From: Lingula anatina
Taxonomy: Eukaryota; Animalia; Brachiopoda
Reading direction: 5' to 3'
NCBI GenBank assembly: GCA_051362555.1
Contig: CM120640.1
Span: 51,500,788 to 51,564,787 of the forward strand
DNA length: 64,000 nt
The position numbers and the translations under genes were made by a program. The notes beneath the pieces are model-generated. The model was not told the origin of the DNA, searched no databases, and saw only the letters and a list, made by a program, of their open reading frames with translations. This document shows, piece by piece, positions 29,201 to 32,200 of this stretch; position 1 is the stretch's first letter, and each line of letters begins with the position of its first letter.

Positions 29201-32200
29201 GTGCCACTCTCTGAAAAGCTCACAAATCTAACCTTGTATGACCATAGTTACATAAGCTTGCCAGTCGCCTTACTTGATAAAGGCATAAACTTGGCGGTAT
29301 AAGTCCACCCTTCTAATTAGGTAACTTAATGAATTCTCTGACCTTAGCACTTTATTAAAGAGAGGGTGCCACTCTCTGAAAAGCTCACAAATCTAACTTT
29401 GTATGACCATAGTTAAATAAGCTTGCCAGTCGCCTTACTTGTTTAAAACTCAGAAACTAGTGGTAATTAATCTAACGAGCACATGCCGGTAAATTTTAAA
29501 TGACCCAAACATTAAAGATAATCGGTTTCCATATAGTAATAACCCCGTAAGGTAACTCGAGATAACTTATAGAGATAACCCCTTAAGATAACTTAAGATA
29601 ACCTACAGAGATAACCTAAGATAAGCTTTGATCTCATAGAGATAACCCATTAAGATAACCTGAGATAACCTATAGAGATAACCTGAGATAACCTTTGATC
29701 TTATAGAGATAACCCATGAAGATAACCTGGGATAACCTTTGATCTTATAGAGATAACCCATTAAGATAACTTAGAATAACCTATAGAGATAACCTAAGAT
29801 AACATGTTCTCTTATAGAGATAACCTGTTAAGATAACTTAAGATAACCTATAGAGATAACCTAAGATACCGTGTTCTCTTATAGAGATAACCCATTAAGA
29901 TAACTTAAGATAACCTGTAGAGATAACCTAAGATAACATGTTCTCTTATAGAGATAACCTGTTAAGATAACTTAAGATAACCTATAGAGATAACCTGAGA
30001 TAACCTTTGATCTTATGGAGATAACCCATTAAGATAACCTAAGATAACCTATAGAGATAACCTTAGATAACATGTTCTCTTATAGAGATAACCTGTTAAG
30101 ATAACTTAAGATAACCTATAGAGATAACCTAAGATACCGTGTTCTCTTATAGAGATAACCCATTAAGATAACTTAAGATAACCTGTAGAGATAACCTAAG
30201 ATAACCTTTGATCCCATAGAGATGACCCCTTAAGATAACCTGGGATAACCTATAGAGATAACCTAAGATAGCATGTTCTCTTATAGAGATAACCTGTTAA
30301 GATAACTTAAGATAACCTATAGAGATAACCTAAGATAACATGTTCTCTTATAGAGATAACCTGTTAAGATAACTTAAGATAACCTATAGAGATAACCTAA
30401 GATAACATGTTCTCTTATAGAGATAGCCTGTTAAGATAACTTAAGATAACCTATAGAGATAACCTGAGATAACCTTTGATCTCCTAGAGATAACTACAGT
30501 AACATAGACGAACAGGTAAAAGAGAAAAAAAAAATTAACTGAACATCACTTAATTACTTGCACAGGGAGTGCAAAACAACAGAAGCGGGTAATTAGTGGT
30601 GAAAAACGGTTAATAGTAAAAAAAGGGAGGTCATGGGGAAGCTACGCGAAATATCTAAACAGAGAACGTAACTTCGATCTAGCAACTACTACAAGTTGAA
30701 CTTACTAAAATTAGATAAAGTTTCATTAAATTCAGTTCCAAACTACATAGAAAATGGCTAATGACAGGCGGGTTACCCCCGCGGGGGCACCCTCTAAATA
30801 AAATCTAACTCACTGGTACTAAAGGCTGTTGATTCTAATTCTGTCGAAAGGGGAGTCAGCTTTTCGAAGAACCCACGCTTTGGCTCTGCAGCCCTATTTA
30901 TAGACTCCGTTACGTCATGCTCGCGCTGCGGTCAAAGGTCGAAGGTCGCGACCTAACAGCATGGCCGCTCTGCATGGAAGTGTCACTAACTTGTGTATTG
31001 TAGATTTAGCGCCGTATTTCCATTATTTGGGATTTAAATGAAGAATTAACCTATGGGTTTAGTTGGATAAACTCCAGGACATATGTCTCTAAGGAAAAAC
31101 GAAGTCTTAGGTATGATTTAATGTAAAGTTATTGAAGAAAAGTAGATTCCGGTCATAGCAGACGATCGTGCAGCACATGTTTACATTGTTTCTAATGATT
31201 TAAAATAGCAGATTCGTGGCTCCTGTGACCCCCTTTGTTACACTGCCCCCACCCTTTTAAAATTGATTCTCCTGAATCAAGAACAAGTACTGTAGGTAGA
31301 TAAACACTATTTTAATAAAGTGAAAACTATATAACAGATGGCCATGAGTACATTTTAAGTTATTGAATATTGTCCGCAAGAGTACTGTCCCTGTATAGTC
31401 TGTGAGAAGAGATTCATTTTTAGTCTAAAAAAAAAATGATTGCACTTTGTCTAAAAAAAAATGATTTTAATAGTAATAATAATTCATAACCATCATCTTA
31501 GATAAGCATTGCAGTCAACAAAAGAAATTTCTAACGATCATTCATCTTCCATCTGGATAAATTGTTTCCTTTTCAGTGAACCTTGTCACCCTGCCATACA
31601 GGGGGGCAATGCTTGTTTTTGACTGATCTACACGTGCAGCAGGTGACTTCCTGGCAGGCATTGGTGTACTCTCACCATCCTCCACGTCCACGTCCTCGTC
31701 CGATGACCAACCTCCTGTTGGGGGCTCTGGCGTCATGTTCAGCCTGATACCCTTCCCACCTGTTGTCGGGCGTGGAGCTTTCCTTGGGGGCTCTTCTACT
31801 GGTGTTTCCTCAAGGAGGGAGGCTTCCTCCTCCCTCCCCACCATTACCTGCACTGGCTGGTGATGGGCCTGTTGGTGTTTCATCAATTCGCTTTCTTTGG
31901 TGTAAGACCTGTCGCAATTCTTCTCCATGCATTTATACGTTTCGTGCATGGCCGCTTCATGCCTCCTGCGGTTCGATCTTGAGGAAAAATGTACACTGCA
32001 GTACTTGCATTTCTGACCTGGCATCACTAAAATAAAGGTGGATTTATTATTCATTTCATTTTATGCGTTCATAAGATTTTTTTTTTTTTTTCGTGACCTT
32101 CAGCACAGATAAGGGGGTAGGTTATTCAGTGATTAGTAAAAAAAAAAAAAAAAAAAAAAAAAAAAAAAAATTCTGCCAAATTCCTTAATAAATTTGATTA

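Follow-up and report, generated by a model that had tools for sequence, protein, structure and literature searches.

A zinc-finger open reading frame with histone H3-like words in a Ty3/Gypsy retrotransposon of Lingula anatina, weighed as a candidate decoy for H3K9 methyltransferases

Little is known of the means by which animal retrotransposons oppose silencing through H3K9, and the best-known anti-silencing proteins encoded by the elements themselves are those of plants. SARS-CoV-2 ORF8 and G9a belong to the proteins recognised as histone mimics. A further mimic, NS1 of influenza H3N2, has been described as copying the H3K4 region and acting as a cell-wide decoy (PMC12937675), and the plant precedent is given by the VANC anti-silencing proteins, which target tandem repeats in their own VANDAL elements (PMC5735166). 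Among LTR retrotransposons, Cer1 of C. elegans encodes CERV, an accessory protein made from a spliced mRNA that acts in RNA export (PMC10309623), and general background has been drawn from two further sources (PMC9768651; PMC8220671). No report of a retrotransposon-encoded H3 mimic has been found in searches of openly accessible papers.

The window analysed here, a stretch of 64,000 nucleotides, contains a Ty3/Gypsy LTR retrotransposon of 10.06 kb on the minus strand (37889 to 27835), which has been assigned by its TG...CA LTR ends, primer-binding site, polypurine tract, possible target-site duplication, gag and protease. The 5' LTR (34544..37889, 3,346 bp, minus strand) and the 3' LTR (27835..31242, 3,408 bp, minus strand) both read TGTAAC...GTTACA at their termini, and since the pair differs by just 13 substitutions at 1,956 non-array positions, the insertion is young. 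The primer-binding site adjoins the 5' LTR (34525..34542, minus strand) and is presumably of the tRNA-Leu type, the polypurine tract lies directly ahead of the 3' LTR (31243..31258, minus strand), and the flanks of the element are AT repeats compatible with a target-site duplication of 4-6 bp. Each LTR carries two tandem arrays, one of 67-bp units (29707-30494 in the 3' LTR, 36175-37140 in the 5' LTR) and one of 95-bp units near its 3' end (28097-28612 and 34806-35226, with 5.4 versus 4.4 copies). The 67-bp arrays are packed with GATAAC/AGATAA, at 64-67 per LTR, which we take to be GATA-factor-like sites; GATAAC has been counted 64 times in the 3' LTR, 66 times in the 5' LTR and 30 times in the remaining 53.9 kb. 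Both LTRs also hold, within a GC-rich island, an uninterrupted antisense open frame of 121 codons (28727-29092 and 35342-35707, plus strand), for which Pfam gives no match.

Between the LTRs, a gag with a CCHC knuckle (33398..34405, minus strand) is recognised by Pfam zf-CCHC at an E value of 1.9e-06 and by 25 homologues of 37-50% identity, a sea-star protein among them, and the gag profile has found no match in viral or prokaryotic contigs. The protease and the start of the reverse transcriptase region are encoded in a frame other than that of gag (32238..33460, minus strand, from three-frame translation), with one in-frame stop near 32926. The pol region ends abruptly near 32390, and the reverse transcriptase core, RNase H and integrase are absent from this copy. 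A gag relative, L039, has a complete pol in the order PR-RT-RH-IN, and the tblastx alignment to it stops where the pol of our element breaks off. The element is multicopy, with a contig word depth of about 200-650 over its internal region in two DNA runs (X1 and X6). As the contigs of X1 branch at 32384-32391, at the pol deletion point, forms of the element other than the window copy exist, likely with a longer pol; several further internal-deletion joints have been seen in the same run. The surroundings of the element hold an array of units of about 144/288 bp with AAAGGTCAA words (23840-25680), some 2 kb past the 3' end of the element, and an inverted repeat of 121 nt, 83% complementary, whose arms lie 2.2 kb apart (40252-40372 and 42556-42676) and possibly mark a DNA transposon. 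At 2197-3548 and 15145-16700 on the plus strand lie two host genes in tandem, in which exons of the chitin-binding (CBM_14) type precede other, similar exons; one of the two also has a Laminin_G_3 match, an architecture that we take to be of the Pif-like shell-matrix type and that suggests a mollusc or another lophotrochozoan as the host.

Downstream of gag-pro, an open frame at 31542-32054 on the minus strand holds ORF3, which has 160 residues from the ATG at 32024 (31542..32024) or 170 from 32054, and whose C-terminal end is uncertain in that the stop codon is placed differently in both majority contigs. Just upstream of the ATG, the sequence has a poly-T run (32138-32170) and a predicted splice acceptor (AG at 32028-32027; the whole at 32025..32170, minus strand). 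A second, divergent contig class in X1 and X6 matches the element at 31999-32032 and is unlike it beyond, so that the two share just 34 nt, from the acceptor through the ATG to the eighth codon (with 4 differences in X1), which argues for a genuine and constrained start of ORF3. Pfam zf-C2H2 (PF00096, 26.5 bits versus a cut-off of 25.2) identifies a pair of C2H2 zinc fingers (residues 6-27 and 32-54; 31863..32009, minus strand), which fit the pattern C-x2-4-C-x12-H-x3-5-H. In the PDB they resemble DNA-binding fingers most closely (ZFP568, E 5.7e-10), and weak Pfam matches below the cut-off point to TFIIIA-type and dsRNA-binding fingers. The tail of 106 residues, rich in P, E, T, G and R, is predicted to be disordered, and a single-sequence fold of ORF3 has a low mean pLDDT of 56.8 and leaves the tail devoid of structure. 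The charge profile is strongly acidic at residues 106-120, where the block WSSDEDVDVED (residues 106-116; 31677..31709, minus strand) may resemble a WDR5-binding or Myc-type acidic motif.

The RNA evidence for this frame is scarce. On 4.2 kb of the element, 56, 24 and 3 reads have been obtained from three runs sampled at about 6, 6 and 25%; ORF3 itself has about two read pairs in the two runs sampled at about 6% and none in the third, and none of the reads in these samples of the three runs is a spliced read joining ORF3. Compared with the majority contigs of X1 and X6, ORF3 has 10 variant sites, 0 of which fall in 31618-31829 (P 0.024 for the motif stretch of 150 nt), while the coding differences, 7 non-synonymous and 2 synonymous, give no sign of purifying selection. 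Homologues of ORF3 have been found neither by word-based searches with the tail (6 candidates) and with the whole frame (16 candidates, lengths 88-280), nor among metagenome contigs (294 stretches) and viral contigs (13 stretches), nor by exact look-up.

The original prediction had pointed to two stretches in the ORF3 tail as a mimic of the H3 tail, and both have been located on the minus strand where it had placed them: PRKAPRPTTGGKGIR at residues 80-94 and PARKSPA at residues 123-129, in the numbering that starts with the ATG at 32024. Their distance, given there as about 30 residues, holds for the stretches themselves (29 residues between them), and the starts of TGGK and ARKS lie 36 apart. 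The segment RKAPRPTTGGK (residues 81-91; 31752..31784, minus strand) can be read in the register of H3 K4-K14 and has, as had been claimed, a proline where H3 has K9, while the equivalent of K14 is kept as K91; ARKS (residues 124-127; 31644..31655, minus strand) is followed by a proline. The single words lie on the minus strand at 31781-31770 (KAPR), 31763-31752 (TGGK), 31760-31749 (GGKG, a word of histone H4) and 31655-31644 (ARKS). Using a natural H3 tail from locus L032 as the reference, exactly three four-mers (KAPR, TGGK and ARKS) and no five-mer have been found in common, and the words are out of H3 order and thus not colinear. A phmmer search of the tail against the PDB has returned no histone at E<=10, and the idea that ORF3 is an H3 gene fragment captured in colinear form has been rejected, given the differing order, the lack of a five-mer and the lack of a PDB histone match.

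Measured for a single protein, this likeness is rare. At least three four-mers are reached with P 0.001-0.002 in global and local shuffles, the BLOSUM62 score of 41 has P 0.005-0.006 in the same two kinds of shuffle and the PAM30 score 0.008-0.02, dipeptide-block shuffles yield P 0.005 for the four-mers and 0.011 for the score, and a dipeptide-block decoy H3 yields 0.013. Among 947 control segments (149 from gag homologues, 568 from retrotransposon loci and 230 from the window), none reaches two four-mers or a score of 41. Over the whole window, 4.4-5.3% of 3000 trials with decoy H3 tails yield at least one segment with three or more four-mers, and RPTTGGKGIR, the top 10-mer match of the window to H3 8-17, is of a quality of which about two instances are expected (30 H3 10-mers, 70,219 positions). 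Within the tail, an 11-nt repeat with copies at 31794 and 31728 points to duplication of a short piece. The H3 likeness of the tail is therefore suggestive, not compelling: it exceeds chance per protein, but its words are out of order and the window-wide chance is 4-5%.

The substrate profile of the methyltransferases offers a second measure. For SUV39H1 and SUV39H2, sequence preferences around the target lysine have been determined, with G13 and K14 important for SUV39H2 (PMC8303541). If P86 is set as position 0, residues 81-89 (RKAPRPTTG) agree with all seven SUV39H1/2 preferences taken from that study, namely R at -5, A at -3, P at -2, the essential R at -1, T at +1, T at +2 and G at +3, and depart from the profile by the target lysine itself, a combination that suits a decoy. 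This pattern occurs once in 127,996 six-frame positions of the window and once in the 145,468 positions covered for related loci, and 0.09-0.23% of shuffled tails contain it. The four ORF3 residues that differ from H3 all fall into tolerated sets, with a product of 0.002-0.004, although this comparison is post hoc, having been picked after the sequence was seen, and has three positions in common with the four-mer test. SUV39H1 does not tolerate proline at +2 (PMC8303541), and exactly such a proline is present in the ORF3 word ARKSP; K126 within ARKS fits the loose four-residue G9a pattern, which is present in more than 17,000 proteins (PMC10611923), and ORF3 has no ART start. Of the earlier proposal that the tail is a decoy or substrate, the lysine-less K9 segment has thus gained by its fit to SUV39H, while the ARKS part has lost, by its proline at +2 and by the commonness of such words.

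A stronger case of histone mimicry has been met among the relatives of the element. The gag profile has fetched 16 metagenome loci, most of which end before or inside pol, and one locus alone among them, L049, has a C2H2 pattern. Its gag-pro is 87% identical to those of L045 and L048, its contig has no LTR and no detectable reverse transcriptase or integrase core, and its C2H2 protein (P0027, L049:7004-7771) is encoded 3.9 kb downstream of gag-pro on the same strand. The frame starts with MARTKMMARK, an 8/10 match to H3 for which 0.006 are expected by chance after correction, and goes on to a single finger, an acidic block and PARRKSP. With P0027 as the query, a full HMMER search has given 50 matches at E<=1e-3 (P0028-P0077), making a family of 51, in which the stretch Met plus H3 1-9 is matched at 7/10 or better by 19 of the 51 proteins and at 10/10 by 6, although this query already contains the H3 start and a single host lineage may be the source of all members. 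Four more proteins have a 5/10 match behind a Met; the other 28 are mostly fragments starting downstream of the H3 copy, and three proteins (P0042, P0051 and P0062) have upstream sequence present and the copy absent. A set of 19 proteins, chosen for a match of at least 5 ahead of a recognisable finger, has T3 and K4 without exception, and the resemblance to H3 ends abruptly after K9. In most gene calls of the family the H3-like Met lies inside the predicted protein, and we infer that it may serve as the start codon.

The layout of this family comprises the H3 1-9 copy, a linker rich in RD, a single C2H2 finger extended by DGTPAT, an acidic KSxEF motif, a tail rich in SP/RS and a C-terminal domain of three helices. 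The KSxEF-type motif is present in 25 of the 51 members and has a weak Pfam match to SSRP1_C (E 0.46), and a literature search for KSKEF has brought up nothing relevant. From an alignment of 45 rows, the finger-plus-helix and the C-terminal helical domain have been folded with confidence, with no clear match in the PDB (Foldseek none at E<=0.001; best VIA Z 5.5), and the ten family clusters that have been looked up are all unnamed metagenome proteins. The family is tied to Gypsy elements by P0038, whose reading frame also encodes a gag-like region (E 8.8e-07). Histone-mimic accessory genes in Gypsy elements are well supported by conservation, and the family is the stronger case than ORF3; an H3 1-9 family of this type has not been found in searches of openly accessible papers.

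ORF3 and this family share the position downstream of gag-pro, a C2H2 finger and H3-like words, together with a finger helix resembling R-[ST]-N-x-R-R-H and an acidic block followed by STP and RKSP, the last two features forming two weak colinear patches. Unlike the family, ORF3 has two fingers instead of one and lacks the H3 1-9 start, the DGTPAT extension, KSxEF and the C-terminal helical domain. Membership of ORF3 in the family has been rejected, with an HMM E value of 0.04, an hhalign probability of 5.8%, a finger score of -5 versus 28-55 for members and a tail alignment P of 0.08-0.32, and homology is likewise unsupported by profile comparisons. A hidden H3 1-9 exon elsewhere in the element copy has also been rejected, the best match being 5/10 on the antisense strand in a scan of the sequence retained beside the deleted part of pol. 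The family thus raises the prior that the ORF3 words are selected and is no proof of it. As an observation apart, three giant-virus-type contigs (L074:1501, L081 (974) and L092, the latter on the minus strand) have an H3 N-terminal copy fused to non-histone sequence, the partner being AT-hook-like or basic and repetitive in two cases.

Beside the observed anatomy of the element, with its open frame, two fingers, three H3 words and SUV39H fit, and the H3 1-9 copy in its relatives, we place the following reading. ORF3 would be a DNA-binding accessory protein made from a spliced mRNA, whose fingers would bind DNA, plausibly the LTR arrays of the element itself, with the GATAAC-rich 67-bp array as a candidate target, and whose lysine-less RKAPRPTTGGK would occupy SUV39H-type H3K9 methyltransferases locally as a decoy, so that silencing of the element would be weakened. 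The ARKS word and the K14-like lysine may be modified in addition, which is the weaker part of the case. The reading is favoured by the per-protein P values of 0.001-0.013, the SUV39H fit, the variant-free motif stretch, the L049 family, the conserved acceptor and start of ORF3 and the precedent of VANC. Against it count the failure to find an ORF3 homologue, the window-wide chance of 4-5%, the non-colinear words and the non-membership in the L049 family, as well as the ratio of 7:2 non-synonymous to synonymous differences, the scarce RNA, the missing splice joint, an L049 contig that has no LTR and a family query that already held the H3 start. In addition, a proline would not occupy the SET lysine channel, unlike the residue of methionine-type inhibitors. 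We regard mimicry by ORF3 as about an even bet and assign the specific SUV39H decoy a probability of roughly 0.45.

The rival that survives best takes ORF3 to be a real zinc-finger transactivator, composed of the fingers, a basic nuclear-import patch and an acidic activation or co-factor motif, in which the H3 words have arisen by chance in a tail rich in P, R, K, T and G and partly duplicated from itself. The strongly acidic block at residues 106-120 and the 11-nt repeat would be expected of such a protein, the window-wide chance, the altered order of the words and the absent K9 would need no further explanation, and ARKS-type words occur in more than 17,000 proteins (PMC10611923). This account has to accept that not one of 947 controls comes near, that the SUV39H profile is fitted and that the motif stretch is free of variants, and it faces an element type that demonstrably uses H3 copies in such a frame; it is quite possible, though we would sooner doubt than adopt it. 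Improbable in our judgement is a role like that of CERV, in which a spliced product would bind the unspliced RNA of the element and promote its nuclear export. The predicted acceptor directly upstream of the ATG, the sub-cut-off matches to TFIIIA-type and dsRNA-binding fingers and the precedent of CERV, which an LTR retrotransposon makes from a spliced mRNA (PMC10309623), all agree with it, but the best structural relatives of the fingers bind DNA and the H3 words are left unexplained. That ORF3 derives from an exon captured from the host, or is a decaying remnant that no longer has a function, is very improbable, for although 7 non-synonymous versus 2 synonymous differences, very few RNA reads and the lack of a homologue in the databases searched would suit it, the frame is intact while pol has been lost, a second contig class keeps the acceptor and start, and related Gypsy elements have a conserved C2H2 frame downstream of gag-pro.

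Returning to the decoy on the element's own LTRs, ORF3 and the L049 family may together represent a class of accessory genes in Gypsy elements of marine invertebrates, in which C2H2 fingers are combined with an H3 copy, either the exact H3 1-9 or a lysine-less K9-K14 pseudo-substrate, and which would act as histone decoys on their own LTRs; we offer this tentatively, as plausible but short of an even chance. A protein of fingers plus an H3 tail is in any case a small and directly testable candidate for anti-silencing. With its LTRs, primer-binding site, polypurine tract, CCHC gag and protease, the element resembles the Ty3/Gypsy elements of marine invertebrates (the Mag radiation, including the C-clade), for which the available text describes no extra zinc-finger ORF (PMC8220671). 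Its LTRs of 3.4 kb carry arrays, and with reverse transcriptase, RNase H and integrase missing it is not placeable in a clade. For CERV, which acts in RNA export, the abstract speaks of no C2H2 fingers and of no histone mimic (PMC10309623). NS1 and ORF3 both have a short copy of the H3 tail within a parasite protein that could engage chromatin readers or writers, but in ORF3 the words stand within the protein, K4 and K9 are missing, and the attached fingers would keep the effect local, unlike the situation in NS1 (PMC12937675), to which the L049 family with its H3 1-9 copy is the closer parallel. VANC and ORF3 are both element-encoded accessory proteins with a proposed role against silencing, and the target repeats of the VANDALs correspond to the arrays in the LTRs of our element, whereas VANDALs are DNA transposons of Arabidopsis and act on DNA methylation, and ORF3 has C2H2 fingers and H3-like words (PMC5735166). 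If the decoy reading is true, ORF3 would be an animal counterpart of VANC, in which the histone-mimic trick of the NS1 type is combined with targeting of the element's own LTRs.
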